Below, one piece after another: positions 2,696 to 20,692 of a stretch of 32,000 nt of DNA. Numbering within the stretch: the first letter of the stretch is position 1; each line of letters begins with the position of its first letter. Position numbers and translations under genes: made by a program. The DNA comes from Clostridia bacterium DTU025 (lineage in GTDB: Bacteria; Bacillota; DTU025). Below the pieces are notes generated by a model. It did not search any database and had not been told where the DNA came from. It saw only the letters and a list, made by a program, of their open reading frames with translations. The DNA lies in assembly GCA_001513145.1 (NCBI GenBank), contig LFSP01000007.1, positions 1 to 32,000 of the forward strand. Reading direction: 5' to 3'.

Positions 2696-3424
2696 TCAGA
2701 GGCTGAATCTGTCGCCCAAGTACAGCTGCCTTGCGGTCACATCGTCGGCGATCTCCCGGGCGCTTCCTGACACTAGAATCCGACCTTCATACATTATGTG
2801 CGCACGGTCCACTATCGCAAGGGTGTCCCGCACGTTGTGGTCGGTGATGAGCACTCCCAGGCCTCTGCGCTTCATGTCGACTACGATCTCCTGCAGCTCG
2901 CCCACGGAGATGGGGTCAACTCCGGTGAAAGGCTCGTCCAGGAGCACGTATGATGGAGAGGCCGCCAGCACCCTGGCGATCTCGACGCGCCTCCGCTCAC
3001 CTCCCGACAGGGTGACACCTGCCTGTCGGGCAAGATGCTCCAGGTTCAGCTCGCGCATCAGCTTCTTGAGACGCTCCCTGCGCCTGGCCCCGTCAGGTTC
3101 GAACAGCTCCAGCACTGCCATGATGTTCTGCTCGACGTTGAGCTTCCTGAAGACTGAAGGCTCCTGCGCTAGATACCCCAGCCCCAGCCTCGACCGGCGC
3201 CACACAGGCAGAAACGTCACGTCCACGCCATCTATCCAGACCCTGCCCGAATCGGGCTGCTCCAGGCCGACCATCATGTAGAAGGTGGTGGTCTTGCCTG
3301 CGCCGTTGGGCCCCAGCAGCCCCACGACCTCTCCCCTTTCTAGGGAGATATCGACGCCGTTCACCACGGTCCGCTGCCGGAAGCTCTTAACCAAGGCCTG
3401 GCCCCTGATGCCCACGAACTGCAC
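2696..3424 (-). CDS. lptB: LPS export ABC transporter ATP-binding protein LptB
   Basis: 242 aa. Walker A in LLGPNGAGKTTTFYMMVGL, signature LSGGERRRVEIARVL, Walker B LLDEPFTGVDP. Length and sequence are typical of LptB, and it lies in an lpt cluster. The start is GTG at 3424; an alternative GTG lies at 3415. Confidence 0.85.
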   Translation of the reverse strand: MQFVGIRGQALVKSFRQRTVVNGVDISLERGEVVGLLGPNGAGKTTTFYMMVGLEQPDSGRVWIDGVDVTFLPVWRRSRLGLGYLAQEPSVFRKLNVEQNIMAVLELFEPDGARRRERLKKLMRELNLEHLARQAGVTLSGGERRRVEIARVLAASPSYVLLDEPFTGVDPISVGELQEIVVDMKRRGLGVLITDHNVRDTLAIVDRAHIMYEGRILVSGSAREIADDVTARQLYLGDRFSL

Positions 3425-4836: not shown

Positions 4837-4888
4837 GTACAACCACCTCGTCCGAAAGAGCTGCGGTTGCCCTCGGACGCACTACCTT

Positions 4889-5653
4889 CTACAAGCCCGC
4901 TGTTTTCTCCTTCACAGGCACCGACGCGTACGCCAGCGCCCTGGCGTATCGGATGCCTATGCCTGAAGTGGGCGCGGCCAGCACCTGGTCAGGCGGCCCC
5001 TGCTCCACGACGCGGCCTGCGTCCATCAGCACCACGTGGTGGGCTGCCCTCAGCGCGAACCCCGCCTCGTGCGTGACCACCACCATGGTGGCCTCGAGAG
5101 TTCGCGACAGCTTCTCCATGAGGCTCAGTATGTCCACCACCAGCGTGGGATCGAGGGACGCAGTGGGCTCGTCCCACAGGATCAGCGAGGGCTTTTCGGC
5201 GATGGCCCTGGCAATGGCCACGCGCTGCATCTCGCCGCCGGACAGGTGTCGCACGCTCTGGTCCGCCCGAGGGCTCAGACCGACTTCGTCAAGGGCATGC
5301 AGGGCAAGCTCATGAGCGTCAGCGACTGGGCGGCCGGCAGCCACCATGGGCAGCATCACGTTCTGCACCACGCTCAGGTGCGAGATGAGGTTTGCCCTCT
5401 GAAAGACGAAGCCCACGCCCTGCCTGAACTGCTCGAGCTCCGCCTCGGTCATTCGCGTCACATCCCGACCCATCCACGTGATGGTTCCGGAATCCGGCTC
5501 CACCAGCCGGATGATGCTGCGCAGAGCCGTGGACTTGCCGCACCCCGATGGGCCCATCAGGGCCACCACGGAGCCTGTCTCGACGTCCAGGTCCAGGCGG
5601 TCCAGAGCGGTCCTATCCCCGAACGTCACGGTGAGGCCCTGTATCCTGAGCAA
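4889..5653 (-). CDS. ABC transporter ATP-binding protein, FtsE/LolD/MacB-like
   Basis: Walker A GPSGCGKST, the FRQGVGFVFQ..NL block, signature LSGGEMQRVAIARA, Walker B LILWDEPTASLD. The track ORF starts at GTG 5836, but those first 61 residues are Arg/Pro-rich and overlap the upstream gene. TTG at 5653 (MLRIQGLTV...) follows GGAAGGTGG, so it is the preferred start. Confidence 0.75.
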   Translation of the reverse strand: MLRIQGLTVTFGDRTALDRLDLDVETGSVVALMGPSGCGKSTALRSIIRLVEPDSGTITWMGRDVTRMTEAELEQFRQGVGFVFQRANLISHLSVVQNVMLPMVAAGRPVADAHELALHALDEVGLSPRADQSVRHLSGGEMQRVAIARAIAEKPSLILWDEPTASLDPTLVVDILSLMEKLSRTLEATMVVVTHEAGFALRAAHHVVLMDAGRVVEQGPPDQVLAAPTSGIGIRYARALAYASVPVKEKTAGL

Positions 5654-8061
5654 AGCGTGATCCCACCTTCCGATGCTGATCTCATCTTCCTGCCCGCACC
5701 CTGGCGGTGCAGAGCGCCGGCTTGGCGCGACTTGCGGGCGAACGCTGTCCTTCCCCTGTTGAAAAGGCTGAGCAACCCGGGCCTGGTGGCGGGCACCACT
5801 ACCTCCCGCATGACGCAGGCTGGACCGATACCCCACGCCACCCCAGCTTCAACCTCGTCACGGTTGCATGGCGACAGCCTGTCAGCAGCTCCTCCGGCCA
5901 ACGCTCCCAGCGCCGCGCCCACCGGCAGGAACCACGCCAATCCGAGGCCGCCAAGCCTCGCCCCTGATATGGCCGCGGTGGCCATGAGGGTAACGGAGCC
6001 TGCTGCAGCGCCGTACGCTGCAGCCTCCACGCGGGCCACGCGGCCCCTGCGGCTCCCGAGCCCGTGCCCACCGGGCCTCACCATGGCCAGCGTGCCTGAG
6101 GCCACCGTGGCGTGGTCCACCACCAGCGATGCGGCGGTTATCACCATGCATACGATGCCGGCGATGGTGGCGCGCACGGTGGCGAGGAGCGATTGCACCT
6201 CGGCGCCTACCCCGCGGGTGACCATTCCCGCGGGCCCAACGAACACTCCGTAGTCGTCTCCAAGCTCTCTCTTCACGGCCCGGGCCAACTCTTCCGAAGC
6301 GGCACCTGCCTCCACGATGAACCTCGCCTGATCCTTCCCACCGCTGTCACTGTAAAGCTTGTCGATGGCGCTCACCACAGCCAGAGCCTGGCTTCCGCTG
6401 AGCGTCGGCACGCTGGAGCGAAGCTGCTCCAGGGCATCGCGCAGTGCCTCCGAGTCGAGGTCGGCCAGGGTCTTCAGCTGCTGCCCGGCCTGGGCCACCA
6501 GGTCGCCCATGGCATCCAGATCCATGCTCTGCAACGCCTCAACCATGGAGGCCGCCGCATCTGACGCATCACCGATGAGGCCTGCCCCGCCTGCCATCCG
6601 TCCCGCAGCGCTCTCCATTGCTGATAGTCTCTCCCTGAAGCCTGCCAGCGTCCCGCGCCACTGGGCCAAGTCCTCTATGAGCCTGTCGTAGCTGCGCGTC
6701 AGCAGCGAGACGCCGGATGCCACCTCAGACAGCCTGTCGATGGCGCCGATACACTGGTCGGTGAGCTTGAGCAGCAGTCTCACCCCGTCGAGGCTCAACG
6801 GCATCCTGCCCCCTGCCCTGGCACTCTCCAGGGCAGCGCGCAGCCCTGCCACGGCCTGTTCGGCTCCTTCGAACGACTGCAGCACCTGCTCGATCTCCTG
6901 TGCCTGCTGCACTGCGGCGCGGGCAGTCTCCGCCACTCCCGCCGTGGAGCGCTGGATCCCTGCCGCTGCCCTTTCCAGTGCCGCGGCCGCGGACATCACG
7001 TCTGCGCTTCCCACAGGCCTGCCTTGGGCATCGTAGGCCACGATTGGCTGCGACCTGCCGTCTGCCGCATCCTGTCCTGCCGAGCCCTCAACGCTTTCAC
7101 CTGCGGCATGGCCCCCCAACGCCTCGAACACCACGGCCGGCTCGGAGATGACGACGGCGGTGGCGGAGACACCGTCCGCGTCCACCACCTGGGCGTCCGC
7201 CCTGCGGACACCGAGGCGAAGAACCAGCCTGTCGCCTCTGGTCACCTTGGCCCCTGCATCCAACCTCACGCGTACGCTGGGAGCCCACGACAGCGCAGCC
7301 TGCCTCAGCAGCGCCACGGCCTCCGGCAGCTCATCCGAACCGGAGCCGTTGCGCGCGCCGGCGGTCCACACCCTCACGTCAGAAGCCTGCGCGCCGCCTG
7401 TTGTCCTGCCCGCGCCGGCCTCCACCAGCTGCCGGACATGCCCTTCATCTATCTGGCGTCCGTCGGCGGCGCTCACCTGCACCTCGTGAAGCGCCTGCAG
7501 CTTGCCTTCGATCTCGTCCGACACCGTCTGGACTTCGTCCGCAGAGCGCAGCACGAAATGCAGGTTCGACCCATCTCTCAGGACGAACCTGATGCTCTCG
7601 TCGCTCTCGCCTCGGCCGATGTTCTCCTGCAGTGCCTCCGCGGCTTCGCCTGACAGCCCCGTCACGGTGACCCTGGGCTCCGCCACGATGGTCCTTCCGA
7701 GGTAGCCCGGAACGTCCCTCACGGCGTCCAGCGCCCACCTGAACTTGGCCTCGTCGGCGCCCTCCAGATCAATCATGAAATTGGATCTACCCAGCAACGT
7801 GACGCCCTCGCTGACTCGGATGCCCGGCGTCGACTGGGCCAGGGCCATCAGCGCCCCCTTGGCCTCGAGCCGCATGTCGCTGCGCACGTGGACCACCAGC
7901 TCGTGCTGGTCCTCGTCCCCGAGAATGCCCCTGGCGGTGCCTGCGAAGAAGCCGTGGGTGGCCCATGCAGTCATGAAAGCCACAGCCGAACCCAGCACGA
8001 CTGTGGCGAGTATAAGAGCGATAACGTCTTTGATGTAGCCCTTACGAAGAAGAGCGTACAT
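5626..8061 (-). CDS. Large membrane protein with FtsX/MacB-like topology (1 TM, ~600-aa extracytoplasmic region, 3 C-terminal TMs); probable permease partner of the adjacent ATPase
   Basis: 811 aa counted from the ATG at 8061, which has RBS GGGGGTGA 5 nt upstream. N-terminal TM is VIALILATVVLGSAVAFMTAW. The C-terminal hydrophobic segments are IAGIVCMVITAASLVV, AAAYGAAAGSVTLMATAAI and LGLAWFLPVGAALGALAGGAA. The central part has alpha/beta-looking segments followed by about 250 aa of Ala/Leu/Glu helical repeats. Confidence 0.5.
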   Translation of the reverse strand: MYALLRKGYIKDVIALILATVVLGSAVAFMTAWATHGFFAGTARGILGDEDQHELVVHVRSDMRLEAKGALMALAQSTPGIRVSEGVTLLGRSNFMIDLEGADEAKFRWALDAVRDVPGYLGRTIVAEPRVTVTGLSGEAAEALQENIGRGESDESIRFVLRDGSNLHFVLRSADEVQTVSDEIEGKLQALHEVQVSAADGRQIDEGHVRQLVEAGAGRTTGGAQASDVRVWTAGARNGSGSDELPEAVALLRQAALSWAPSVRVRLDAGAKVTRGDRLVLRLGVRRADAQVVDADGVSATAVVISEPAVVFEALGGHAAGESVEGSAGQDAADGRSQPIVAYDAQGRPVGSADVMSAAAALERAAAGIQRSTAGVAETARAAVQQAQEIEQVLQSFEGAEQAVAGLRAALESARAGGRMPLSLDGVRLLLKLTDQCIGAIDRLSEVASGVSLLTRSYDRLIEDLAQWRGTLAGFRERLSAMESAAGRMAGGAGLIGDASDAAASMVEALQSMDLDAMGDLVAQAGQQLKTLADLDSEALRDALEQLRSSVPTLSGSQALAVVSAIDKLYSDSGGKDQARFIVEAGAASEELARAVKRELGDDYGVFVGPAGMVTRGVGAEVQSLLATVRATIAGIVCMVITAASLVVDHATVASGTLAMVRPGGHGLGSRRGRVARVEAAAYGAAAGSVTLMATAAISGARLGGLGLAWFLPVGAALGALAGGAADRLSPCNRDEVEAGVAWGIGPACVMREVVVPATRPGLLSLFNRGRTAFARKSRQAGALHRQGAGRKMRSASEGGITLCSGYRASP

Positions 8062-8086
8062 GCAGCTCACCCCCGCTTCACACAGA

Positions 8087-8149: not shown

Positions 8150-8833
8150 CTAGTCTTCTATTTCGAAGGTGATCTCCATGGACTTGCCTTCGGCCTCGAC
8201 GCGCTCTCTGTCGGTGTACACCGTGGCCCTGTCGCACCTGATGCTCTCGTTGTCCTCTCCAGTGATGCTCACATCGCCCTCAAGCACGATGCGCCTCTCG
8301 GAGCTGGAGTACGAGGCTGTGCGGCAGCGAGCCACCTGTCCTCCCTTAGACACGGTGACGTCGCCGTCTGCGTCGAAATCCTGCGTGGCAGTGGAGATCT
8401 TCAGGGTGCTGCAGTCTAGCGTGATGGTGGTGGTCACCGGGTTGCCCTCTTCATCCATTTCGGCCTGCGGCTCGATCTTGGTGAGCCTGACCCCTCCTGA
8501 GAACTCGGCCCTGTCTTCCTTAAGGTAGATGTTCATTACCTCAGCCGTCACGGTGACTTCGCCCTGCACCAGCGTGACGCCGCCGGACAGGAGCGCCGTG
8601 CCGGCATCGATGTTCACGGTGGCCGATGACGACGTGATCACCACGTCGTCGTATTCAATGGTGACTCCGCCCTCAATGGTTGTATCACCTTTGGTGCCCT
8701 GGTAGGTCAGGCGGCTCTCTGGTCCGGTGGTCACCCTGACCGACTTGGCCGCCTCCGCGGACAGCGGCAAGACCACCATCGACGCCATGATCGCCAGGGC
8801 CAGCCCTCGCACAAGCGCACGCTTCACGTTCAT
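8150..8833 (-). CDS. lptA: LptA-like periplasmic LPS transport protein (OstA-like beta-jellyroll)
   Basis: 227 aa. Signal peptide MNVKRALVRGLALAIMASMVVLPLSAEA. It then shows repetitive OstA_N-type strands (IEGGVTIEYDDVVITSSSATVNIDAGTALLSGGVTLVQGEVTVTAE...), and it sits directly downstream of lptC. Confidence 0.7.
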   Translation of the reverse strand: MNVKRALVRGLALAIMASMVVLPLSAEAAKSVRVTTGPESRLTYQGTKGDTTIEGGVTIEYDDVVITSSSATVNIDAGTALLSGGVTLVQGEVTVTAEVMNIYLKEDRAEFSGGVRLTKIEPQAEMDEEGNPVTTTITLDCSTLKISTATQDFDADGDVTVSKGGQVARCRTASYSSSERRIVLEGDVSITGEDNESIRCDRATVYTDRERVEAEGKSMEITFEIED

Positions 8834-8849: not shown

Positions 8850-9518
8850 TCAGTCGCCGATCTCGAACTCGATGGTGGTGGGGCCAGTGGCCTCCAGTGC
8901 CTCGGCCTTCGGATCGAACACTATTCTGCCGCCCCTCACGGCTATGTCGCCGGAGGAGCTCGTGCCGGTGATGACCAGCTGGCCCTCGGAATAGAGCTTG
9001 TCAGCCGTCACGTCAAGCTGCAGCGAGTCCACCTTCACCTCGCCTGACGACGTGGTGATCACCGCGGGGCCAGGCACCACCGCCCTGGATTCGTCAGGTT
9101 TCCAGATCACCTGGTCGGAACGGAGCAGCTGCTCTCCGTCCTGATGGAACACCACCCCGCCGTCCAGCACCAACTCCGCGGTTCTCGCCGCGTACTGGCC
9201 GCTGCCGGCCGTGAAGGTCATGTAAGGCTCGCCATCACGCATTATCTCCCCGTGGATGATGCCACGGACGTGGGTGGAGCTGGACCGCTGGTCTCCGACG
9301 ACGCTCACCGACTCGGCCGCGATGCGCCAGGCTGTGACGCCCGCGTCCATGCCCTGTATCACAGCGCCGTCTATCACCAGCTGCTCTCTGGGGCCCGTCC
9401 GGGGCCGCGAGTCCTCAGCCTGCTCCTCCGGCCTGTTCAGGACGAACCCGTAGACGTACAGACACGCGACGATGAGAACCGCCGCCGCCACCACTGCCCT
9501 GTGTGCCCGTGGGCTCAT
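8850..9518 (-). CDS. lptC: LptC-like membrane-anchored LPS transport protein
   Basis: 222 aa. N-terminal TM anchor AVVAAAVLIVACLYVYGFVL followed by OstA/LptC-like beta-rich sequence. Strong RBS GGGAGGGA 5 nt before the ATG at 9518. It lies between the lptF/G-lptD ORF and lptA. Confidence 0.65.
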   Translation of the reverse strand: MSPRAHRAVVAAAVLIVACLYVYGFVLNRPEEQAEDSRPRTGPREQLVIDGAVIQGMDAGVTAWRIAAESVSVVGDQRSSSTHVRGIIHGEIMRDGEPYMTFTAGSGQYAARTAELVLDGGVVFHQDGEQLLRSDQVIWKPDESRAVVPGPAVITTSSGEVKVDSLQLDVTADKLYSEGQLVITGTSSSGDIAVRGGRIVFDPKAEALEATGPTTIEFEIGD

Positions 9519-9554: not shown

Positions 9555-12500
9555 CTACTTGAATATGATCCCTTCCTCCCCGAGACCGAAGCCAATCGGC
9601 ATGCCTGGCAGAGCCTTGAGCCTGAACTCCAACCACACCCTTCCGGTGGTGTGCTGGTACATGAGGGACACCTCGCGGCAGTGAAGGTCCTTCGTGATGC
9701 CTATGTCACCCCTGATGATGCCACCCTTCACTACGTCGTATATGCCCGCCCACTGCAGCCTCCAGTCAGACCCCAGCTTCAGGCTGGCCGAGCTCTCAAA
9801 CCTGGTCATCTTGGAATCCGTGAGGTCGTAATTGAACCCCGCCTTCAGCTCCAGGTCAGGCGCGGGCGACGCCGTCACCTTCAAGGTGGCGGTATTGTGG
9901 CTATTGAACGAAGGATAGAACCTGCCCGTTGCCTCCACGGTCACGCCCTTCCACACGGCGGCCGAGGCGCTGGCGGTCACAGCCCCAAAGGTGCCTGTAA
10001 GGAAGTCGTACGACGCGCCCGCAGTCAGCCGGAATCGGCCCACTGACGATGTCAGCGAGGCCGACACGGAACTGGACTCCGACATCTGGTCGAACCGGAA
10101 GGGCGAGTGGCCCTCCGTCACGGAACCGGAGTAGGTCAGCCTCAGTTGCGCCCAGTCCGCCGGGATCACGGTGGCGCTAGCGGTGAAGCTGGCGCCGGCG
10201 CGGGAGGCATCCTCGAACGAGTAGATGCTACCCCTGGCCGAAGCCGAGGCGTCAAGGCGCAGCCACGAGGCCGGCCTCAGGGTGTTCAGGCTCAACGACG
10301 CCTCCGCTTCGCCCTTGGACGACGCCACCTCCGTGAGCACGCCGTCGCGAATGGAGTCTTCCCTGTAAACGCCGAACAGGAGCTTCGCGCCTGCCGTCAC
10401 CGGGAGATTCCCGATCTTCAGCTGCGACACGCTGGCCGTGAGCTCCGGGGCCCTGCGCAGCTGGCGAAAGGGTGGAGGCGTGCTTCCCTCGCCCGATTCA
10501 TCGTCGCCCTCCTCATCTATGTGGATCTGCTCCTGAAAGAGGGCGGTGTAGGTTATTCCGCTGACCGAGGCGTTGGCCGCAGCTCTGATGTTCACCACGT
10601 TCTGCTTGACCTCATCCCCCACGCGGTTCAGCCTGTAGGAGCCGTCGGCCGTGAGCCTGATCACGTCGGCGACGGTGGAGGAATGCCTCAGGGTGGCGGT
10701 GGTAAGAACCGAGTCGGCGGCTGAATCGGTACGCCTGTGGGAGAAGGAGAAGTCCGACGTGCCCTTGGCCACGCGCCGCTGAAGCGAGAGGGAGTACGTG
10801 CGCTCCTCCGAGGGAGTGCCCAGCGATACGTAGTCCCGGTAGGTGTACCCGCCGCCCAGCGATAGCCCATCCTCGGGCTGAGCCTTCAGCCCCAGCTGGA
10901 GGGTGGTGTCCACTGAGGACGTGGATCTGTTGAAGAGCTCATACGCCGAGAGGTCGAGCTCGGCCCGGTCGAACCCTAGCCTGTGGGAGATGCCCATAGC
11001 GGGGCCAAGGAGCTGAAAGTAGTCCAAGAGGAGCTTGCCCCGGGAGTTCTCGTTCACGGAGTAGTTGGTGACGGTGCGTATGTACCAGCCCTCCCTCACG
11101 CCCCAGCCGATCTTGGGAAGTTCGAAGCCTTCGTCTTCCTTCAGCGGTATCGTGAGTTTGGGAAGCCTCGCCAGCCTGAGCTGGCCCTCGTAGTACAACA
11201 CCCCGTGCAGCACCACCCTGTCGTCCACGTAGAAGTCAAGGGCCTCCACTTCCAGCCTGTAATGGGGCTGCTCCAGCTCGCACGAGGTGATGCTGGCGTG
11301 CTCAAGGTGGAAATCCTCACCCTGGCGCGACAGCACGTCTCCAGATACGTAAAGGTAACCCTCCACCTGCTGCACCGAGAGCTTCGCGCGGGCCCCGTGC
11401 ACCTTCACGTCGCCTGTGGCCAGGTCCAAGGTGGCCGCATCGCCCCGAAGCTCCTCCGACCCCTCTATGATCACGACGTTCCCGGTGAACGTGGCGGTCT
11501 TCAGGTTGACATACATCTCTGCGCTGTCGGAGCGGATCACGGTGTCATCGAAGGACGTTTCCACTCCTCCCCAGGCTGTCCATAGCCCATCGCTGCCGTC
11601 GTAGACTATGTGCTCGGCGCGTATCCTCACCAGGGTGGTTCCTGAGCTAGCCGCCGCAGACGCCCCACTTGGAAGGGCCAGGCCCGCCGCGCACAGCAGG
11701 AGGGCAACCAGCGCAAGCGCCGCGACGCCCCGGCGCCTCGTCCTGCGCCGCCATTCGGCGCCTCGAAGGAGAGTCACCCCCAGCGCCAGGAAGGCCGAGT
11801 TGGGAAGCCACGCCGCCACAAGGGGCGGGATGGTACCCTTGATCCCCAGCGACCTGCAGACAGCCGAGAACACGTAGTACGCCAGCGCCAGCACGGATGC
11901 CGCCACAACACCGAAGTAGCCGCCTGCGTGGCGCGGCGACTTGGTGACCAGGGGCGCGCCCACCACCGCGAACACCAGCGCCGCGAAGGGCTGGGCCACC
12001 TTCAGGTGGTACTCCACCTCAAGGCCGCTCACCCGGACGCCGCTGCGCCGGAAGAGGTCGATGTGGCGCGCGAGCTCCTGCCGGGTCATCTCGGAGGGCT
12101 CCTTCTGGCTGGACGTGAATCCCTCCATGGTCTCGTCCATTGGCACGGTCAGGGTGTCGAAGGAAATGGCCATGGTCACCTGGCCCTCGCGGTCTAGCTC
12201 GTGGATATGTCCGTCTTCCAAGACCCAGCTGCCCTGCTGCACCCTGCCGCGGGCGGCGGTGAGCAGGCGCGGGAAGGTCGAGGATCCGGTCTCGTAGATC
12301 ATGACCCGGCTGATGGTGCCCGCGTCCCTGTTCACCTGGCCCACGTAGAAGTACCTGTCGCCAGGGGCCTTGAAGAACACGTCCTGTTCCACGGCGGGCA
12401 TCGCCTCACCGAACACGATCTCCCTGAATATCCTCTGGGACTCGTGGTTCGCCCTGGGGACGATCTCCTCGCCCAGGGTGAACAGGCCGCCGCTTATGGC

Positions 12501-12824
12501 CACGCCCAGCACCACCAGGGGAAGGGCGAGCCTGGCGAAGGACACGCCGGCGGCTCGGATGGTGTCGAGCTCGGAATCCTTGGCGAGGCGCCCGAGGCCC
12601 AGCATGGTGGCGAATAACACCGCGATGGGCCCCGCTTCAAGCACGATGCCCGGCAGGCTGTAGACGAGCATGCGCACCACAGCCAGCACGGGCACCTTTC
12701 TCTGCACTATGAAGTCGACCAACATGAACAGCTGGCCGCTGAGGATTATGATCACAAAGGCTGAAATGGACATCGCGAGGGGCCCAAGAAACTCGCGCAC
12801 AACGTATCTGTCGAGAATCCTCAT
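9555..12824 (-). CDS. Single ORF fusing an LptF/LptG-family permease (N-terminal ~360 aa) to an LptD/OstA-like protein (C-terminal ~700 aa)
   Basis: The frame is uninterrupted from the ATG at 12824 (MRILDRYVVREFLGP, a classic YjgP/YjgQ start; RBS GAGGGG 8 nt upstream) to the TAG at 9555. Residues ~400-520 look like OstA_N. ASITSCELEQPHYRLEVEALDFYVDDRVVLHGVLYYEGQLRLARLPKLTIPL followed by GWGVREGWYIRT matches the conserved LptD core pattern (TxC ... P.fy.P). The C-terminus is beta-strand-like and ends GIIFK. Confidence 0.75.
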   Translation of the reverse strand: MRILDRYVVREFLGPLAMSISAFVIIILSGQLFMLVDFIVQRKVPVLAVVRMLVYSLPGIVLEAGPIAVLFATMLGLGRLAKDSELDTIRAAGVSFARLALPLVVLGVAISGGLFTLGEEIVPRANHESQRIFREIVFGEAMPAVEQDVFFKAPGDRYFYVGQVNRDAGTISRVMIYETGSSTFPRLLTAARGRVQQGSWVLEDGHIHELDREGQVTMAISFDTLTVPMDETMEGFTSSQKEPSEMTRQELARHIDLFRRSGVRVSGLEVEYHLKVAQPFAALVFAVVGAPLVTKSPRHAGGYFGVVAASVLALAYYVFSAVCRSLGIKGTIPPLVAAWLPNSAFLALGVTLLRGAEWRRRTRRRGVAALALVALLLCAAGLALPSGASAAASSGTTLVRIRAEHIVYDGSDGLWTAWGGVETSFDDTVIRSDSAEMYVNLKTATFTGNVVIIEGSEELRGDAATLDLATGDVKVHGARAKLSVQQVEGYLYVSGDVLSRQGEDFHLEHASITSCELEQPHYRLEVEALDFYVDDRVVLHGVLYYEGQLRLARLPKLTIPLKEDEGFELPKIGWGVREGWYIRTVTNYSVNENSRGKLLLDYFQLLGPAMGISHRLGFDRAELDLSAYELFNRSTSSVDTTLQLGLKAQPEDGLSLGGGYTYRDYVSLGTPSEERTYSLSLQRRVAKGTSDFSFSHRRTDSAADSVLTTATLRHSSTVADVIRLTADGSYRLNRVGDEVKQNVVNIRAAANASVSGITYTALFQEQIHIDEEGDDESGEGSTPPPFRQLRRAPELTASVSQLKIGNLPVTAGAKLLFGVYREDSIRDGVLTEVASSKGEAEASLSLNTLRPASWLRLDASASARGSIYSFEDASRAGASFTASATVIPADWAQLRLTYSGSVTEGHSPFRFDQMSESSSVSASLTSSVGRFRLTAGASYDFLTGTFGAVTASASAAVWKGVTVEATGRFYPSFNSHNTATLKVTASPAPDLELKAGFNYDLTDSKMTRFESSASLKLGSDWRLQWAGIYDVVKGGIIRGDIGITKDLHCREVSLMYQHTTGRVWLEFRLKALPGMPIGFGLGEEGIIFK

Positions 12825-12862
12825 AGCGCAAACCCCTCGCAAGTGCCCGCGGGCCTACACTG

Positions 12863-13318
12863 CTACTTGGCCCCGCCCTTCTTCAGCACGTCCTCGGTGA
12901 TGTCGATTCCGCCGAGATGAACGACGCTGTCGTCAATGACCACAGTGACGCCCTTCTCCTTGGCCACGGCGGCGATGGCGTCTTCCAGGCTCTTCTGGGC
13001 AGGCTCCAGCACAGACCTGGCGTAGTCGTTGTACTGCTTGTTGTACTGCTCCAGCAGGCTGGTCCTTTCGGCCTCGTCCTTGCCGGCGGCCTTGGCGTTC
13101 AGCTCCTCCTCGAGCTCAGCCTTCTTCTTGGCTATGCTCTCCCATGCGGCCTTCATGGCGGGGAACTCCTGGCCCACCCTGGCGCCGTTAAGCCTTCCGA
13201 TCACCACGTTCTCGCCAGCTGCGCGAAGCACGGCCATGTTGGTGACCGCCAGGCCGATTCCGACCAGAAGAGAACATAGGAACAAGGTCAACAGCGCCTT
13301 AGGCAGATTCTTAAACAT
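12863..13318 (-). CDS. OmpH/Skp-family periplasmic chaperone
   Basis: About 150 aa. N-terminal hydrophobic signal, then a Lys/Glu/Ala coiled-coil arm (KKKAELEEELNAKAAGKDEAERTSLLEQYNKQYNDYARSVLEP), then KEKGVTVVIDDSVV, typical of the Skp C-terminus. It sits immediately downstream of bamA. The track start is 13327; the second ATG at 13318 has a better-spaced GAAAGGA RBS. Confidence 0.7.
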   Translation of the reverse strand: MFKNLPKALLTLFLCSLLVGIGLAVTNMAVLRAAGENVVIGRLNGARVGQEFPAMKAAWESIAKKKAELEEELNAKAAGKDEAERTSLLEQYNKQYNDYARSVLEPAQKSLEDAIAAVAKEKGVTVVIDDSVVHLGGIDITEDVLKKGGAK

Positions 13319-13370
13319 CCAAGTCATCCTTTCTTAAGTGCCTACTTAGCACTGAGTAGCGTACTGCTTG

Positions 13371-13409: not shown

Positions 13410-15140
13410 CTAGAAGGTCTGGCCGAAACTGAAGTACAGCTGACCGCCCTGCTTGCTGATGCCGTAGTCGATCCTTATGGTACCGAGGAACGGAACGGTG
13501 AGGCGTGCGCCGATGCCGTAGCCCACCTTAGTGGCGGAGAAGTCCGGGCTATCTCCGATGTCCCAGGCCTGGCCCGCGTCGACGAACGCGACGCCCTGCA
13601 GGTTGTCGATGATCTTGAACCTGTACTCGGCGTTGGCGAAGATCATCCTGTCACCCTCGATGTCGCCGTACTTGTAGCCGCGCACGGTCTCGGCTCCGCC
13701 TAGCACGAACCTCTCCTGCTCAGGAAGGTCGGTCAGGCCCCAGCCGCCGCTGACCCTGGCAGCCAGCACGTGGCCCTCATGCACCTGCAGGTAGCCCGAG
13801 CCTTCGGCCTGCAGCTTGGTGAAGTGGTTGTCGCCGCCAAGGAGGCCGCCGGCGTACTCGATGGAGCCTGACAGGCGGTGGCCAGCCGACGGGTTCCACA
13901 GGTCGTTCCTCTCATCGTTGACTGCAGACAAGGTTATCGAGCGGGTGACGCCGCCCGGTGGTATCTCGTGGGCCATGCCAAGGTCGGCCGGGGTGTTCAC
14001 GGCGTTGTCCCACTTGAACTTCACGTACGCCCTGGTGTTCAGGGACAGCTTGGTTCCGAGGCTCACATCGGCGCCGGTGCGCCTCTGGGAGTACGGGATA
14101 GGCTCGATAGGCTCGGGGTCTTCCTCACCCTCTGCAGGTTCCGGCGTGAACTTCTTGTCCGCTGTCCTGTTGTACAGGTTCAGGCCCAGCGACATCTTGC
14201 CCGTCTTGCCCAGCCACGGCTCGTAGAAGCCCAGCTCGTAGTTGGCCCTGCCCATGCCGAACTCGGCCTTGACGTTGATGGTCTGGGCGTTGCCGAGGAA
14301 GTTCTCATCTCCAAGCTGCAGGTAGCCCATGATCCCCGTGGCCGAGCTGTAGCTGAGGTTCATGTTGGCCACGCCGGTCTTCCTTTCAGTGAAAACGTAC
14401 GTCACCGCGAACTCGGGCCTTCCCTGGATAGGCTCCACCCTGGCCTGAACGTCCTCGAACGCCCCCAGCATGTAGAGGGCCCTACGGTCGTTGTTGATCG
14501 TGGTGACGTTTATGACCTCGCCCTCTTTGAGGGTGATGGTGCGCCTGGCCACCGCGGGCTTGGTCTTCTCCAGGCCCTCAAGGCGTATCTCGGCCACCGT
14601 CCATTCCACGAAGTTCACCTGAAGCTCGGCATCGTCGCCGAGCACCGGCTCAATGCTGACCCAGTAGCCCTTGTCGCTGTACAGCTTCGACAGCTTCTCC
14701 AGGTCTGATCTGAGTGTTGCCGCGTTCAGCTGCTCCCCAGCCTTGGTCTCCATCACGGCGAGGAGCTCCCCCGTGGGCACCTGTTGGTTGCCGGCCAGCC
14801 TCACGTCCTTCAGCACCGGGAACTCCCTGACGAAGAAGATGAGCTTGTAGCCGTCGAGGTGCGGGACGGTATTGGCGCTGAGCTCCATGAACCAGCCCAT
14901 CCTGTCGAGCCTGGCGAAGGTCTCGTTCACCGCCTGCTCGGTGATGTCGTCACCGATCTTCAAAGTAATCTGTTCCAGAATGAGGTCGGTATCTACTTGG
15001 CTGTTCCCCTGCACTTCAACGGCGGTGAGCTTGCCCAGCGGCTTGGTCTGGGCAAGAGCGCCAGGAGCAGCAACCAATACCATCGCGATCAGGATCGCCA
15101 CCGCGATGCTGCAAGACTTTCCGGCACGGAATGAGTTCAT
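13410..15140 (-). CDS. bamA: BamA/Omp85-family outer membrane protein assembly factor
   Basis: Signal peptide MNSFRAGKSCSIAVAILIAMVLVAAPGALAQ from the ATG at 15140 (RBS GGGAGGGAG). POTRA-like repeats (VEVQGNSQV..., DVRLAGNQQV..., EIRLEGLEKT...). Gly/Tyr-rich beta-barrel ending GGQLYFSFGQTF with a C-terminal Phe beta-signal. The track start at 15227 adds 29 unlikely residues. Confidence 0.85.
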   Translation of the reverse strand: MNSFRAGKSCSIAVAILIAMVLVAAPGALAQTKPLGKLTAVEVQGNSQVDTDLILEQITLKIGDDITEQAVNETFARLDRMGWFMELSANTVPHLDGYKLIFFVREFPVLKDVRLAGNQQVPTGELLAVMETKAGEQLNAATLRSDLEKLSKLYSDKGYWVSIEPVLGDDAELQVNFVEWTVAEIRLEGLEKTKPAVARRTITLKEGEVINVTTINNDRRALYMLGAFEDVQARVEPIQGRPEFAVTYVFTERKTGVANMNLSYSSATGIMGYLQLGDENFLGNAQTINVKAEFGMGRANYELGFYEPWLGKTGKMSLGLNLYNRTADKKFTPEPAEGEEDPEPIEPIPYSQRRTGADVSLGTKLSLNTRAYVKFKWDNAVNTPADLGMAHEIPPGGVTRSITLSAVNDERNDLWNPSAGHRLSGSIEYAGGLLGGDNHFTKLQAEGSGYLQVHEGHVLAARVSGGWGLTDLPEQERFVLGGAETVRGYKYGDIEGDRMIFANAEYRFKIIDNLQGVAFVDAGQAWDIGDSPDFSATKVGYGIGARLTVPFLGTIRIDYGISKQGGQLYFSFGQTF

Positions 15141-15273
15141 CGATCTCCCTCCCACGTGTGGCCCCAAGACGCCGCATTCGAAAATGACGAACAACGAACG
15201 ACGGCGCACGGAGGCGCTGAACGTCATAGCAATGATCCCTCAGTAATTCCTTATCTTGTTCGCCTTACACTGG

Positions 15274-17340
15274 TCAGTTCCTGCCGATGTTCCACGGCAT
15301 CGAATCGATCCAGGAGGCAAGCTGGTCTAGGACATATTGACGCACACGGGACCCGATAAGTTTCGCAAGCAGGTCACCTTGTGCGGAAAAGTCGCCGGCA
15401 GGCTGGCCATCCTGGCCCGCTGCCTTCGCAAGCTCGAGCTGGATGTCGCCGAGCTCCCCGAAGGCGGTGACCAGAACGTCGTCGCCGCCCAGGCTCTCGA
15501 CGATGGTCAGCGCGAACCGCGGCGCGGCGCCGGGCTCCATCGTCGCCTGCCCGCCCAGGACGCGGAGGGTTTGCCCGGAGACCGCGATCTGCCCCTCGCC
15601 AAGGCCCACCTGGCCTTCGAAGGTGGGGTTGCGCAGGCTCCCCGCCACACGCACCTCCGAGCCTGGCATCACCTCAGCCCAGGTTTCTCCCCGCTCCACC
15701 GTGAGAGCCTCGCCGGCCCTCAGCGTGACGTCGACGGCGATGTCTGGAATGGTCGGCACGGAGGAGAAGCCGGCCGTCACGGCGTCGATGGTACCGTCTC
15801 CGACGGTTATCGCTCCGGCCACTGAGCCCTGGGCGTAGGAAAGGCTGGCATCAACCACGGCGTTCAGGAGCTGATGGGACAGGCTGACTTGGCCGGCCTC
15901 AAGGCTCCAACAGTCGCCAGCTCCTTCGACTCTGACACTGCCCCCGCCGAAGTCCGCCTGAAGCGTTGCAGAGCCCAGAGCGATGGTTGGATCAGGCTCG
16001 TGGCCCGCCTGAGCAGCCGCGGCTCCTCCGTCGAACTTCAGTGAGCCACGCACCTTCGAGAACGTGCCCTCAACGCCCTCCACCTCCAGCTCGCCGTCGG
16101 CCAGCTGGAGCTCGCCTGCGAGCCCGGAGGCGTCCACTTTCAGCTGGGCCCTCCAATCCAGCCACCCTCGGACCATCTCCGCCGATGCGCCGGCCCCGCT
16201 TTCAGGCAGCAGGGGTCTTGCGGCGTCCAAGATCCGGTCCAGGCCGGTCTTGCCCCCGTCCAGGCGCGCGAGGCCCGACTCTCCGTCGTATCTGACGTCC
16301 GCCCGTAGCTTCCAGTCTTCAAGTTCAATGGAATCCCACTTGAGGGACGAGACCTCCACGTCGCCGCCAGCCTGCACCAGCGGCCTGCCGCCCTTCAGCC
16401 GGGCGTCAAGCTCTCCGACGAAGCCCAGCTCCGCGTGGCCCTCTGGGCCCGTGATGCGCATGTCGAGCCTGTCGTCAGAGGACTCGCTCAGCTTGAGCGC
16501 TCCCTGGACAGTCAACCCGCCTCCACCTGCGACATCGAACCGCACGTCAGCGGCGGCCAGAGACTCAAGCCCGAGGGGCAGGCGCAGCTGCACGGCCCCC
16601 TCAAGCTGCCACTGGCTTGCAGCGATGCTCGCCGTGTCAACCGCCAGGATGAAGCCGCCCTCGCCGGACCGAGCCTGATCCAGAGCCAGTTCGGCGCTGC
16701 GCACCGCCACAGGCCCGAACCGATGGGTCACAATGACGCAGTCGTACAGGCCGATCGGAGCGTTCCACCCCGCCAGGTAGCTCGACCCGCCGCGCGCGCC
16801 AACGTTCTTCGGCTGCTTCTTCGGCGCTGCGGGCCCGGCGCCGGCGTCGGCCCGTGCGCCGTCGGATCCCCCGGCCTCAGTCGAGGCCACCGACGCCGCC
16901 ACTCCCGCATCCGCCAGCCTCCGGCCCAGGGCATACAGTTGGTCCTCGTGGCCGCGGAACCCGTGGAGGTCCACCCTGACCACGCTGGCCAGAGGGTCGA
17001 CCCTCCCGGAGATGAAGTCCGCCAGGTCGTACGTGATGGCAACCGTGTCGACGCTGATGCCGCCGTGAGCGCCCCGGCCACCGTGACCGCCCTGGCGGCC
17101 CTCGGCGCAGGCCTTGCCGCCGTCACCAGCTTCGATGGTGACGCCTTTCAGCTTGAGCTGGCGACCGTCGATCACCGCCACCTCAGCGACGTCAACCTCC
17201 GCGCCACCCAACAGCGCAGACAGCACTGACTCAGCCGCCACCGCGCCCAGCCACGTTCTATTCTTCACGATACACGCGCCGGCTGCAACTGCCAACACAA
17301 GCAGCGTCAGGCACACGATGCGCCCTCGCCTCATCCGCAT
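15274..17340 (-). CDS. TamB/AsmA-like translocation and assembly module protein (short form)
   Basis: About 688 aa from the ATG at 17340. N-terminal signal anchor RIVCLTLLVLAVAAGACIV. The rest is long, repetitive Gly/Ala/Val/Asp beta-rich sequence typical of TamB/DUF490. It sits immediately upstream of bamA, as in other OM clusters. Confidence 0.55.
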   Translation of the reverse strand: MRMRRGRIVCLTLLVLAVAAGACIVKNRTWLGAVAAESVLSALLGGAEVDVAEVAVIDGRQLKLKGVTIEAGDGGKACAEGRQGGHGGRGAHGGISVDTVAITYDLADFISGRVDPLASVVRVDLHGFRGHEDQLYALGRRLADAGVAASVASTEAGGSDGARADAGAGPAAPKKQPKNVGARGGSSYLAGWNAPIGLYDCVIVTHRFGPVAVRSAELALDQARSGEGGFILAVDTASIAASQWQLEGAVQLRLPLGLESLAAADVRFDVAGGGGLTVQGALKLSESSDDRLDMRITGPEGHAELGFVGELDARLKGGRPLVQAGGDVEVSSLKWDSIELEDWKLRADVRYDGESGLARLDGGKTGLDRILDAARPLLPESGAGASAEMVRGWLDWRAQLKVDASGLAGELQLADGELEVEGVEGTFSKVRGSLKFDGGAAAAQAGHEPDPTIALGSATLQADFGGGSVRVEGAGDCWSLEAGQVSLSHQLLNAVVDASLSYAQGSVAGAITVGDGTIDAVTAGFSSVPTIPDIAVDVTLRAGEALTVERGETWAEVMPGSEVRVAGSLRNPTFEGQVGLGEGQIAVSGQTLRVLGGQATMEPGAAPRFALTIVESLGGDDVLVTAFGELGDIQLELAKAAGQDGQPAGDFSAQGDLLAKLIGSRVRQYVLDQLASWIDSMPWNIGRN

Positions 17341-17451
17341 CACCACGATCCTACATACGCGACACGCGCCCCACATACCTGCCTCTAGCTGGGCGTTAAT
17401 CGGGGGAAACTGGGGAACTGCTTGCCGAGCCAGGCTGAGCCCGCCTGGTAT

Positions 17452-17521: not shown

Positions 17522-19339
17522 CTACGCGGGATCCGACTCGTCCAGAGAGCCCGCTACGATCTCTCCGTCCACCCAGGTGCTGCCCTCCACGAACCACTCG
17601 GTACGCACCCTGGTCACAGGCAGCTCCCTGTTGCCCGCGTCCTGCTCCGACCGCTCATCGCCTTCCTCGTTGGCACCCGCCTCGGGTGCACGCTGCGCCT
17701 CCTTCATCTCATCGGAGACCTCCACGGGCTTCGATCCCTTCTCCGTCTTCAGCGGCAGTCCATACTCCTCCGACATGAACGGGTCGTCGAGGAAATAGTG
17801 CTCCATGCGGACCACGATCTCGTCTCCCCTGGGAGCAGACGCCAGCTCCGCCAGGAGCTCATCGATGGGCAGGTACAGCAGGCGCTCCATCTCATCCTCG
17901 CCATCGTCCAAGTCGTCTTCGGTGGAGCCTCCCCCACTGATCAAGAACGACACCGGCCCTTCGATCATGTCTTCAGGGATCTGAACCTGGACCGCCCTGG
18001 TGACAAGCTCCCCGCGATACCGGCGCAGCTGCACCTCTATTTCGAACACGCCGCCCGGAGCCACTTCAGGGGTGAGGGCGCGGGCGCCCACTATCCTGGC
18101 GGTCCTCCTGCCCGTCTCCACCTGAACGTCCACGCTGATGGACCTGACCGATGCCTCCTCCGCGGCGTTGCCTACGATGAGGCCAAGGGCCCTCGCGGCG
18201 ACGTCTACCACCTCGTAGCAGATGTCGGAATCGCTCCACACCACGTCCGACCTGCGCAGAGGCTCGTGCCCGTCAAGCTCTATGACGTACTCGAGCTCCG
18301 CGGTGCCCGGTCCGATCCTGTCGATGGCCTGGTCGACTCCGCCCACTGCGACGGTGAAGAACAGGTCATCGATGAGCGGCTCAGAACTGGCGATCTTCGA
18401 GGACGTTATGACCGCCGCGCCGGTGTCGTCGCCCTTGACCGTGACGGTGACCGGGACCATCGAGGCTTCCCTGCCGGCGACTCCCGCCGCACCATACAGC
18501 CTGTCCTGAGTGAAGGCGCCGATCTCCTTGAGGGCAGACACGACCTTGAACGGCACCACGTCGCTCCTGACGATGGTGTGCACCGCGGCCCCGGAGGCCT
18601 GAAGGTCCACCTGGCCAGCTGTGAGCACCGGGTGGCCGAAGGCGAGGAACCTGTCGCCGTCAGTGTATGTGACCGTTCCGAAAAGCCCGGCCCCGACGTC
18701 CCCCGTGATGAGCTGCATCCCCACCATGGCGCCAGGCACCAGCCTGTACTCGGACTCCGCCTGAGGCTCTGCTCCGGGGCCGAACCCGCCGGCGGCAGGC
18801 ATGACCTTGAGCCCGCGCTGAGCCATGACGTCCGACAGGCGGCCAAGAGCCCTCGGCGATAGCCCGGACACGTACACGGTGCCTGAGGCGGCAGCGGCAG
18901 GCATCTCCTGCAATTGCGAATCGTCGGGGTACTCCAGCATCTTTAGCATGTCGCCGATGGGTGTGACCCCTGCGATGTAGTGGTCGCTGCTGGGGAACAC
19001 GTAGGCGACGGCGCCTATGAGTCTGCCGTCCACGTACACCGGGCTGCCGCTCATCCCTTCCGCGACGCCCCCGGCCTCCTCGATCCTTGGGCCAGATGCC
19101 CTCACCAGTATCAGGCTTCCCGGGCTCGAGCCCCTGGACAGCACCGCCACGATCTCCACATCGAATTGCTCCGGCTCAACCCCTCTGAAAACCGTGAGGC
19201 CGTAGCCTTTCATGCCCGGCGCAAGCTCGTCCACACCCATGGTAGGCGTCGACGCCGCAGCTTGCAGCGAGCCTGCTCCCAACAACAGTATCGCCATAAT
19301 CAGACAAGCGAGGGTCGTTCGAATCTTGAAATAACCCAC
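17522..19339 (-). CDS. Peptidase S55 (SpoIVB-family) serine protease, long form
   Basis: EPEQFDVEIVAVLSRG...LILVRASGPRIEEAGGVAEGMSGSPVYVDGRLIGAVAYVF aligns by eye with B. subtilis SpoIVB EKFDIEIVST...[26 protein letters not shown]. A later segment, GTVTYTDGDRFLAFGHPV, resembles SpoIVB GTMTFY...YGALGHVI. The track start is GTG at 19387. GTG at 19339 (MGYFKIRTTLACLIMAILLLGAG, a signal peptide) follows GGGAGGGGG and is preferred. Confidence 0.7.
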   Translation of the reverse strand: MGYFKIRTTLACLIMAILLLGAGSLQAAASTPTMGVDELAPGMKGYGLTVFRGVEPEQFDVEIVAVLSRGSSPGSLILVRASGPRIEEAGGVAEGMSGSPVYVDGRLIGAVAYVFPSSDHYIAGVTPIGDMLKMLEYPDDSQLQEMPAAAASGTVYVSGLSPRALGRLSDVMAQRGLKVMPAAGGFGPGAEPQAESEYRLVPGAMVGMQLITGDVGAGLFGTVTYTDGDRFLAFGHPVLTAGQVDLQASGAAVHTIVRSDVVPFKVVSALKEIGAFTQDRLYGAAGVAGREASMVPVTVTVKGDDTGAAVITSSKIASSEPLIDDLFFTVAVGGVDQAIDRIGPGTAELEYVIELDGHEPLRRSDVVWSDSDICYEVVDVAARALGLIVGNAAEEASVRSISVDVQVETGRRTARIVGARALTPEVAPGGVFEIEVQLRRYRGELVTRAVQVQIPEDMIEGPVSFLISGGGSTEDDLDDGEDEMERLLYLPIDELLAELASAPRGDEIVVRMEHYFLDDPFMSEEYGLPLKTEKGSKPVEVSDEMKEAQRAPEAGANEEGDERSEQDAGNRELPVTRVRTEWFVEGSTWVDGEIVAGSLDESDPA

Positions 19340-19379
19340 GGAAAAACCGCCCCCTCCCTGACGCCCCGCGTCCTTTCTA

Positions 19380-20351
19380 TCATACACTGACGGACGCGTT
19401 TGTCACCCGGGAAATCCCGCACTCGGCGATGGCGACCAGGCCCCTGGCCGCCGCGAGTTGAGGCTCAGGCGCGATGATACAGCTTATCCCTGCAGCCTCG
19501 CCGATCCTTGCCGCGCACGGGTACTGAAGCGCACCGCCTCCGGCGACGACGGCGCTGCGAGCCTCACATAGCAGGCCTGCAGCCTTCACCGCATCGGCGA
19601 TGGCGTCAGCCACGCCCTCCACCGCCTCGTCGATGAGCTCCACAGGAACGGACACATCCACCGGGAGCCGGGTCTCCACGTGCATCCCGCGGGCCGAAAG
19701 CTCGGCCTGGTTCGGGCTGAAACCGTTCCTGGCCTCCCGCACTCGCCTGGCTTCGCCTTGGCCGAGCCTGACCATCATACGCTCCCTGACCGCGAGCTGA
19801 AGGCGACGGTCCGCGCATTCCATGCCTGCGCGAACCGCAACGCTCCAGGCCGGGGAGCCCCCGCGTATCAGGGCGATGTCGGTCCGCCTGGCGCCTATGT
19901 CGACGACCAGGGTGTCGCCTGCTGGCGCGCCGGCGTCGACCCATATGGCCACGGTGGAATGAACGACCCCGGCCGGCATCAGGCCTGCGTCAGCCACAAG
20001 CTGAACCATGCTGCGCAGGCACAGCGGCCCGGGCGCTGAAGGCGCCTGCAGCACCGCTCTGGGCTTGGCCATGCGCAGGGTGCCGCACACGGTGCGAGCC
20101 AGGGCACTGAGGACGTAGAGGGCCAGATGGCGCTGGCCGCCATGGTGCCAGGGACCTACCGGAGCCAGGTAGTATCGATCGGGGCTCGCCTCAAACAGCA
20201 GGGCGGCACGGCGCCCCCAGGCCACAGGCCATCCTGACTCCACGTCGATGGCCACCACGGCAGGCTCCCAAACGACGACTCCGCGCCCGGGAGCAACTGC
20301 AACCACGTTCGCGGAGCCAAGATCCAGCCCGATCTCGAATTGTCGTCGCAT
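19380..20351 (-). CDS. Divergent MreB/Mbl-like actin-fold protein with a degenerate nucleotide-binding loop
   Basis: [29 protein letters not shown] matches MreB [41 protein letters not shown] stands where MreB has [23 protein letters not shown] matches IVLTGGGALL. The ATG at 20351 has RBS GGAGGAGG. Position downstream of spoIIID equals the mbl position in Bacillus. Confidence 0.65.
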   Translation of the reverse strand: [323 protein letters not shown]

Positions 20352-20370
20352 CGAGCCTCCTCCACATGCG

Positions 20371-20628: not shown

Positions 20629-20658
20629 GCAGAGCCCGGCCTCCTCCCTGCCGTTTGG

Positions 20659-20692
20659 TAGATATGTATTCCAGCAAAGGAGGATTATTCAC
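20659..20692 (-). promoter_or_regulatory. AT-rich patch upstream of spoIIID with sigma-E-like elements (GAATAAT ... ATACATATC on the minus strand)
   Basis: The minus strand reads GTGAATAATCCTCCTTTGCTGGAATACATATCTACC, 30-60 nt upstream of the spoIIID ATG. It loosely resembles the mother-cell sigma-E consensus (ATA-rich -35, CATACA-T -10). spoIIID is sigma-E dependent in Bacillus. Confidence 0.3.

Follow-up and report, generated by a model that had tools for sequence, protein, structure and literature searches.

An in-frame fusion of lptF/G and lptD conserved among uncultured Bacillota: a candidate polyprotein of the lipopolysaccharide transport pathway

The DNA considered here corresponds to positions 1 to 32,000 of contig LFSP01000007.1 from Clostridia bacterium DTU025 (assembly GCA_001513145.1); this whole stretch of 32,000 nt is called the window. 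On its minus strand, one long open reading frame (ORF) joins an LptF/G-type permease of the inner membrane to a region assigned below to LptD, the outer-membrane translocon for lipopolysaccharide (LPS). An earlier note on this sequence had described one continuous ORF, and the ORF listing bears out its coordinates and strand exactly. According to this listing, the ORF extends over 9555..12842 (minus strand) and would encode 1095 aa from a TTG start, while an ATG at 12824 (MRILDRYVV...) gives a fused protein of 1089 aa. In the alignment, every homologue begins at the methionine corresponding to ATG 12824, and a GAGGGG motif is found about 10 nt 5' of this codon. The gene is thus taken as 9555-12824. 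Hydropathy analysis shows seven hydrophobic segments, the six of LptF/G and one at aa 366-384, so that the six transmembrane (TM) segments predicted in the earlier note are right for the permease part but not for the protein as a whole. Base composition is even along the ORF. A scan for promoter-like or terminator-like signals inside it gave none above chance, and an Rfam scan likewise gave no result above chance. The fused gene and its parts can be described as follows.

9555..12824, minus strand: whole fused ORF lptF/G::lptD, 1089 aa + stop (ORF listing, alignment, identical copies)
11754..12824, minus strand: LptF/G permease domain, aa 1-357, six TMs with a periplasmic beta-jellyroll between TM3 and TM4 (PF03739, hydropathy, model secondary structure)
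11730..11753, minus strand: linker n-region, aa 358-365, WRRRTRRR, basic, predicted cytoplasmic
11673..11729, minus strand: linker h-region, predicted seventh TM helix, aa 366-384, GVAALALVALLLCAAGLAL (hydropathy 2.59; helix 367-383 in the model)
11643..11672, minus strand: linker c-region, aa 385-394, PSGASAAASS, with predicted signal peptidase I sites (ASA|A after aa 390, alternatives to aa 394)
11130..11630, minus strand: LptD N-terminal periplasmic beta-jellyroll of the OstA/LptD_N type, aa ~399-565 (PF03968, profile against PDB, HHalign, model)
9558..11129, minus strand: LptD-like outer-membrane beta-barrel, aa ~566-1089 (HHalign, AlphaFold, Foldseek)
11280-11282, minus strand: codon of Cys515 (TSCE motif, jellyroll)
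9678-9680, minus strand: codon of Cys1049 (DLHCRE motif, barrel)

The lptF/G::lptD fusion is real and conserved. In the assembly collection, 96 indexed blocks contain the identical 1089-aa sequence, and 22 contigs carrying it were read, from ENA, JGI and NCBI assemblies. At the five places inspected, which belong to independent anaerobic-digester metagenomes and to the NCBI metagenome-assembled genome GCA_012521735.1, gene order is also identical. The 90% cluster of the fused protein contains 25 member sequences, one of them present on 58 contigs. At larger distances, 13 clusters of fused proteins of 1086-1110 aa show 48-65% identity over their full length, and two further fused proteins (P0030 and P0031), with PF03739 at the N-terminus, show 29-32% identity in the C-terminal part; diverged full-length fused homologues number 15 (29-65% identity). 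In the reference-genome collection, all eight loci that cross the junction are fused, and three more end at contig edges. No frameshift was found, and the orthologues do not uniformly carry two genes, either of which, according to the earlier note, would have spoken against a fusion. In a rough neighbour-joining tree without bootstrap, the 15 fused proteins fall into a single clade that lies within the unfused proteins, which suggests a single origin of the fusion. The corresponding records come from uncultured "Bacillota/Firmicutes bacterium", and NCBI and JGI label these proteins only as "LptF/LptG family permease". Within the 90% cluster, the ENA sequences P0206-P0210 are frameshift fragments of 204-347 aa that end out of frame and stem from indel-rich assemblies. 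The short ENA members of the cluster break within the barrel, not at the junction.

In the N-terminal part, PF03739 (LptF_LptG) spans aa 6-354 and model positions 1-352/353 (E=1.9e-92, 310 bits), in agreement with the YjgP/YjgQ-type permease recognised in the earlier note. Hydropathy peaks are found at about aa 15-40, 55-77, 99-117, 276-294, 304-322 and 335-353. The gap between TM3 and TM4 fits a periplasmic jellyroll, and beta strands are seen between the permease helices at aa 149-221 in the full-length model, at low confidence. The NCBIfam scores for LptG (223 bits, cut-off 240) and LptF (190 bits, cut-off 230) both lie below the equivalog cut-offs; on its sequence, this part is an undifferentiated LptF/G, a type already known from diderm Firmicutes (PMC5007114, PMC13018214). 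A search with the LptF/G domain retrieves standalone relatives at 37-48% identity. In every locus, only one lptF/G is present within ±10 kb, as the earlier note had remarked for the window.

Profile comparison and the predicted fold indicate that residues ~395-1089 are a genuine, divergent, full-length LptD homologue, as proposed at first from an OstA_N-like region followed by an LptD-like core. Among the Pfam families named for checking in the earlier note, PF03739 and PF03968 match but PF04453 does not. The match of PF03968 (LptD_N) is partial (aa 430-471, 23.1 bits for a cut-off of 20.4), and the LptD barrel family PF04453 has no match in the fused protein at E<=0.01; DUF3769 matches the C-terminal part weakly (21 bits). 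Evidence of homology for the barrel was therefore sought with profile and fold methods. Searched as a single sequence against 5.8 billion proteins, the C-terminal part retrieves PF04453-positive proteins with E=3e-11 to 2e-6. An exhaustive phmmer search of 1.8 billion representatives gives 1508 relatives, among which are hundreds of standalone proteins of 680-800 aa, aligned end to end (E=1e-74 to 1e-21) and each carrying an N-terminal signal peptide. A profile of the C-terminal parts of the fused family alone (A3) was then compared by HHalign with a profile of seven PF04453-positive proteins (A5). The two align with 99.9% probability (E=1.8e-33) over 590 columns (query 5-677, template 49-708), taking in jellyroll and barrel alike. 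Against PDB sequences, the fused-only profile sees the jellyroll alone (LptD 8h1r, E=4e-5; LptH, E=3e-4). Stronger PDB matches were obtained from the mixed alignments A1 and A4, but true LptD rows in these alignments account for part of the signal, and such matches do not count as independent support; for this reason, weight is placed on the A3/A5 comparison and on the fold search.

The AlphaFold model of the C-terminal part, built from a 29-row alignment, is all-beta with a mean pLDDT (predicted local distance difference test) of 84.2. When this model is compared with the PDB using Foldseek, the 37 best matches are all LptD (8h1r, 4q35, 5iv9 and 7omm among them), with E down to 2.8e-25 and a TM-score of ~0.5, and BtuB and similar folds, next in rank, trail by 18 orders of magnitude. 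Solved LptD barrels have 26 strands. Past the jellyroll, the model contains about 30 strand elements as defined by DSSP, a rough guide to the number of barrel strands. Two cysteines, C515 (TSCE) and C1049 (DLHCRE), are invariant in the 13 aligned fused sequences and align to the TRCE and DSCCW motifs of LptD 8h1r and to the invariant cysteines of A5. This pair corresponds to the cysteines of the interdomain disulfide that links jellyroll and barrel in E. coli LptD. Thus, the C-terminal part does match LptD, and a failure to do so would, according to the earlier note, have counted against its proposal. A role of this part in carrying LPS to the outer leaflet is predicted from the fusion to LptF/G and from the operon context. 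Among the ORFs of the window that were scanned, none matched an LptE family.

The two domains are joined by a linker of about 40 aa, which in the window (aa 358-394) reads WRRRTRRR, then the h-region given above, then PSGASAAASS. A basic stretch, a hydrophobic core, a Pro/Gly position and a small-x-small motif follow one another as in a Sec signal peptide with its signal peptidase I site. The C-terminus of LptF/G is cytoplasmic in LptB2FG structures. Therefore, the linker segment is oriented with its N-terminal side in and its C-terminal side out, like a signal peptide. Linker length and sequence vary among the 15 fused proteins (1080-1110 aa in total), and the reading frame is always kept. 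Most fused homologues have 2-6 K/R in the 15 residues ahead of the hydrophobic segment, and two of them (P0003, P0011) have one. A small-x-small motif is found shortly past the core in 15/15 fused homologues, 4-9 residues away in most. At the -1 column, at least 90% of the 13 aligned sequences have Ala, adjacent linker columns are unconserved, and the residues past the predicted site align with the mature N-terminus of unfused proteins. In the model, about 15 residues separate helix 7 (aa 367-383) from the first jellyroll strand (aa 399). A lipobox was also looked for in the linker and rejected; the Cys of P0005 and P0011 have no preceding lipobox and are unconserved.

The origin of this linker can be approached through the most distant locus found, L012 (CALFSR010000044.1, 71-3379; 33% identity), which has two genes. 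There, a 368-aa lptF/G ends in ...ARADRAGRSLL followed by TAG and, after 45 nt, comes a 718-aa lptD with a TTG start. The N-terminus of this LptD, MTSLRFRIVTAALLAAVAIVPVSGAVLA|ADPVSVQADG, is a classical signal peptide (...AVLA|ADP), and the h-region of the fused linker matches it in position. Both genes are in one reading frame, with TAG as the sole interruption, and the 45-nt spacer, when read through, gives the basic peptide AGRARGQRPGKGRDA, which resembles the fused linkers. The loss of one stop codon therefore suffices to yield the fused architecture. The h-region looks like the core of an ancestral LptD signal peptide, and the fused linker as a whole, judged by this resemblance, would correspond to the ancestral intergenic region, read as a basic peptide, plus the ancestral LptD signal peptide. 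L012 may thus preserve the arrangement that preceded the fusion, or one that followed its reversal. Downstream (3') of its lptD are found lptC, lptA, a ~700-aa protein and an ABC ATPase.

In the fused loci, the conserved order is (tamB-like)-bamA-skp-fusion-lptC-lptA-(~800-aa protein + ABC ATPase)-...-lptB-DUF3084. All three of lptB, lptC and lptA, listed as part of the cluster in the earlier note, matched family models. In the window, the neighbours of the fusion are the following.

13410-15227, minus strand: bamA, upstream of skp in the same orientation (PF01103 + POTRA)
12863-13327, minus strand: skp, directly upstream of the fusion in the same orientation (PF03938)
8850..9518, minus strand: lptC-like gene, N-terminal membrane anchor + jellyroll, 36 nt 3' of the fusion (PF06835, TIGR04409)
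8150..8833, minus strand: lptA-like gene, signal peptide + OstA jellyroll (PF03968, 49 bits; conserved synteny)
5626-8070, minus strand: ~811-814-aa protein between lptA and lptB, no Pfam or NCBIfam match
4889-5836, minus strand: ABC ATPase with amino-acid/FtsE-like scores, overlapping the 3' end of the ~811-814-aa gene
2696..3424, minus strand: lptB, ATPase partner of LptF/G (TIGR04406, 335.6 bits for a cut-off of 240)

Skp and BamA are the chaperone and the insertase that would be needed by an LptD barrel. Every fused locus whose contig reaches far enough still has lptC and lptA. The pair formed by the ~811-814-aa protein and the ATPase occupies the same position in nearly all far-reaching fused loci and in the unfused L012, and is missing from L020 and L021; it may be an undescribed ABC-type component of the outer-membrane gene cluster. 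Directly upstream of bamA lies a 700-aa ORF without family match (15274-17376, minus strand). In the divergent fused locus L018, the gene upstream of bamA is TamB (PF04357), and by analogy the 700-aa ORF probably encodes a divergent protein of the TamB/AsmA type. A 416-aa ORF (3592-4842, minus strand), which lies between the ABC ATPase and lptB and is kept in the identical loci, has no match in Pfam, NCBIfam or PDB and looks cytoplasmic. It was considered as a second, small LptD and rejected, since it lacks both a signal peptide and a PDB match and is not beta-rich. After DUF3084, the identical loci encode a ~1200-aa SLH-domain protein (L013, 21787-23270), whose counterpart in the window would, by analogy, lie at ~1-1300 (minus strand); it may be an S-layer protein or an OmpM-type outer-membrane tether. 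On the other side, the outer-membrane cluster adjoins sporulation-type genes (17522-22380, minus strand) that encode an S55 SpoIVB-like peptidase, an MreB-like protein, SpoIIID (a call made in the identical locus L013), an M23 peptidase and SpoIID, followed by MurA. These genes indicate a spore-forming diderm Firmicute.

From the anatomy of the linker, it can be proposed that the fused product is a polyprotein in which the ancestral LptD signal peptide serves as a seventh TM helix and is cut, so that mature LptD is freed. We regard this as probable, though with some reserve. The fused gene would have arisen when the stop codon between lptF/G and lptD, already in the same frame, was lost. During translation, the LptF/G part would insert with its six TM helices and its C-terminal end in the cytoplasm, the basic stretch remaining inside. 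The ancestral signal peptide would then insert as helix 7 (N-in, C-out) and start the export of the ~700-aa LptD to the periplasm, where signal peptidase I would cut at the conserved small-x-small site, around aa 390-394. The remaining seven-helix LptF/G would probably work with LptB as a homodimer, and mature LptD would be handed to Skp and BamA and folded into the outer membrane. LPS would then follow the route LptB2(F/G)2, LptC, LptA and LptD, as elsewhere in bacteria. In such a scheme, the fusion would enforce an equimolar, co-located and co-translational making of both ends of the bridge. Cleavage, the permease homodimer and any advantage of the fusion are all three points that we infer.

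Several points weigh against this proposal. The hydrophobic core of the fused proteins is ~14-18 aa long, with a median of 16 (n=15) against 13 in unfused relatives (n=45), which is a shift towards uncleaved signal anchors; the simple run-finding used for these lengths gave outliers of 8, 9 and 26 for P0011, P0014 and P0018. Small-x-small motifs arise easily in Ala-rich, high-GC proteomes, and the 15 homologues share kinship. The full-length AlphaFold model, based on 13 sequences, is poor (mean pLDDT 64.8, linker below 50), so that it is uninformative on the arrangement of the domains and the packing of helix 7 cannot be read from it. An in-frame start codon opens the basic stretch in 5/11 fused loci, as ATG in L002, L004, L008 and L020 or as GTG in L007 (at linker aa 4; aa 363 in L020), ahead of signal-peptide-like N-termini (MFNKRR..., MNLAARRR..., MGRRPRNGKG...). 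From their position in the sequence, these codons are probably relics of the lptD start; in the lineages that carry them, dual expression via internal initiation could occur. Moreover, a 480-aa, 16-strand protein of Acetonema longum was assigned as LptD in 2026, whereas a 729-aa OstA-domain protein of the same organism, for which ~26 strands are predicted, was left aside as one that might serve another function (PMC13018214). The divergent LptD family is a candidate for the LPS translocon of Firmicutes.

The first alternative is that the chain remains uncut, with seven inner-membrane helices and a C-terminal outer-membrane barrel, and forms a covalent transenvelope Lpt machine. The continuity and the conservation of the ORF would agree with this, as would the slightly longer hydrophobic core, and a precedent has been proposed in the long MlaD of Veillonella parvula (PMC10665443). 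However, the tether measures only about 15 residues and the barrel would stand one jellyroll length away from the inner membrane, yet lptC and lptA are kept. In the known bridge, as seen in LptB2FGC-LptA-LptDE structures, the LptD jellyroll meets LptA with its N-terminal edge, and does so a long way from the inner membrane. With such a short tether, an uncut chain would therefore hold the LptA-docking edge at the inner membrane, and the retention of lptC and lptA implies an ordinary multi-protein bridge. Besides, a c-region of the signal-peptidase type (Pro/Gly and small-x-small) is present in 15/15 homologues while the rest of the linker is unconserved, and an anchor would not need it. We consequently judge an intact transenvelope chain to be improbable. 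Little better can be said of a chain that is un- or partly cleaved and sits in both membranes as a covalent LptF/G-LptD machine at contact sites between inner and outer membrane, an arrangement that strikes us as rather unlikely. In a milder form, the retained helix 7 may work within the permease, for example in a place like that of the LptC helix, and alter the regulation of the transporter. Of the readings offered in the earlier note, namely one polypeptide spanning towards the outer membrane or a precursor that is cleaved or re-initiated internally, the cleaved precursor is thus favoured over the transenvelope chain because of the short tether, the retained lptC and lptA and the conserved c-region. 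Re-initiation does not hold for the window, which has no in-frame start at the required place.

A second alternative concerns the function of the C-terminal part, which could be an LptD-fold paralogue with another cargo, such as surface lipoproteins, the true LPS translocon being a smaller LptD encoded elsewhere. For spirochaete LptD homologues, a surface-lipoprotein cargo has been proposed. The lack of a match to PF04453 and the assignment made in Acetonema longum (PMC13018214) lend this idea some weight. Nevertheless, covalent fusion to LptF/G and an operon shared with lptC and lptA point to a place in the same pathway, homology to LptD profiles covers the full length and includes both interdomain cysteines, and no further LptD-like barrel is found within the 32-kb window. 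Another cargo for this part is therefore doubtful in our view.

Two proteins could also be made from one mRNA by internal initiation in the linker, the full-length fusion being a minor or non-functional by-product. The in-frame ATG and GTG codons mentioned above are what such a mechanism would use in the loci that have them. But the window, L003 and L005 have no in-frame ATG, GTG or TTG ahead of the hydrophobic core, so that re-initiation is not a general route. The linker contains no conserved Shine-Dalgarno motif, ribosomes translating lptF/G would in any case read through since there is no stop, and the frame is kept despite many indels in the linker, which would be unnecessary if the two parts were translated apart. 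The probability that we give to internal initiation is accordingly very small. Finally, an assembly error, a sequencing frameshift or a pseudogene, which the few short cluster members in ENA assemblies might bring to mind, is practically negligible as an explanation, given that the identical ORF recurs in independent ENA, JGI and NCBI assemblies, that the fusion is kept down to 29% identity and that the short members are frameshift fragments cut in the barrel, away from the junction.

The lptF/G::lptD gene is an unannotated fusion of known Lpt components, of which no description was found in the literature searched. Since the proteins are named LptF/LptG permease only, presence/absence surveys would record this lineage as devoid of LptD. 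Which protein serves as LptD in diderm Firmicutes has been uncertain: none was found in 2016 (PMC5007114), and a disputed assignment involving two candidates was reported in 2026 (PMC13018214). By its natural fusion to LptF/G, the ~700-aa class of divergent LptD is tied directly to the Lpt pathway, in the manner of "Rosetta-stone" evidence. If the product is cleaved, it would be one of the rare polyproteins of bacteria; an outer-membrane barrel would then be exported co-translationally in the wake of a polytopic protein of the inner membrane, and this would offer a natural experiment on the targeting of outer-membrane proteins and on the stoichiometry of both ends of the LPS bridge. A homodimeric permease with a 1:1 ratio of LptF/G to LptD would imply two translocons per pump. 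If it is uncleaved, the protein would be embedded in both membranes.

As compared with the canonical LptB2FGC-LptA-LptDE system of E. coli, LptB, an LptF/G-type permease, a TM-anchored LptC and a periplasmic LptA are found here too. As in canonical LptD, the fused C-terminal part has an N-terminal jellyroll, a large barrel and two conserved cysteines, and BamA and Skp are available. In contrast with E. coli, a single LptF/G gene stands for the usual two, no match to LptE was obtained in the window, LptF/G and LptD form one ORF via an internal signal-peptide-like segment, and the barrel is too divergent for PF04453. Among other diderm Firmicutes, Negativicutes and Halanaerobiales have only one LptF/G along with two OstA proteins of ~200 aa, and LptE is absent (PMC5007114, PMC13018214). 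The present locus resembles those of other diderm Firmicutes by its single LptF/G, its two OstA proteins of ~200 aa, the absence of LptE among the scanned ORFs of the window and an outer-membrane cluster adjoining sporulation genes. There, however, LptF/G and the LptD candidates are separate genes, whereas here they are fused. The fused C-terminal part belongs to the ~700-aa size class, like the 729-aa protein of Acetonema longum.

Two known proteins come nearest to the fusion as precedents, FbcH for a cleaved and the long MlaD for an uncut chain. In the cytochrome b-c1 polyprotein FbcH of Bradyrhizobium japonicum, said to have been described by Thony-Meyer et al. in PNAS in 1991, signal peptidase reportedly cuts at a signal sequence inside the chain. 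The long MlaD of Veillonella parvula combines, in a single polypeptide, an anchor in the inner membrane with a C-terminal part predicted to form an outer-membrane barrel (PMC10665443). It resembles the present fusion in this architecture and in serving lipid transport in a diderm Firmicute. It is, however, proposed to remain intact and has a long helical region spanning the periplasm, whereas the fused protein has a tether of ~15 residues and a motif of the signal-peptidase type. With FbcH, the likeness is that a polytopic inner-membrane protein precedes its exported partner in one ORF, with an internal signal sequence between them, and that the two subunits belong to one complex. The difference is that both products of FbcH stay at the inner membrane, while a freed LptD would cross the periplasm for insertion by the BAM complex, and that cleavage is in our case what we infer. 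The fused protein nevertheless has the layout of FbcH: a polytopic domain that ends in the cytoplasm, followed by an internal segment in which a basic stretch, a hydrophobic core and a small-x-small motif succeed one another.

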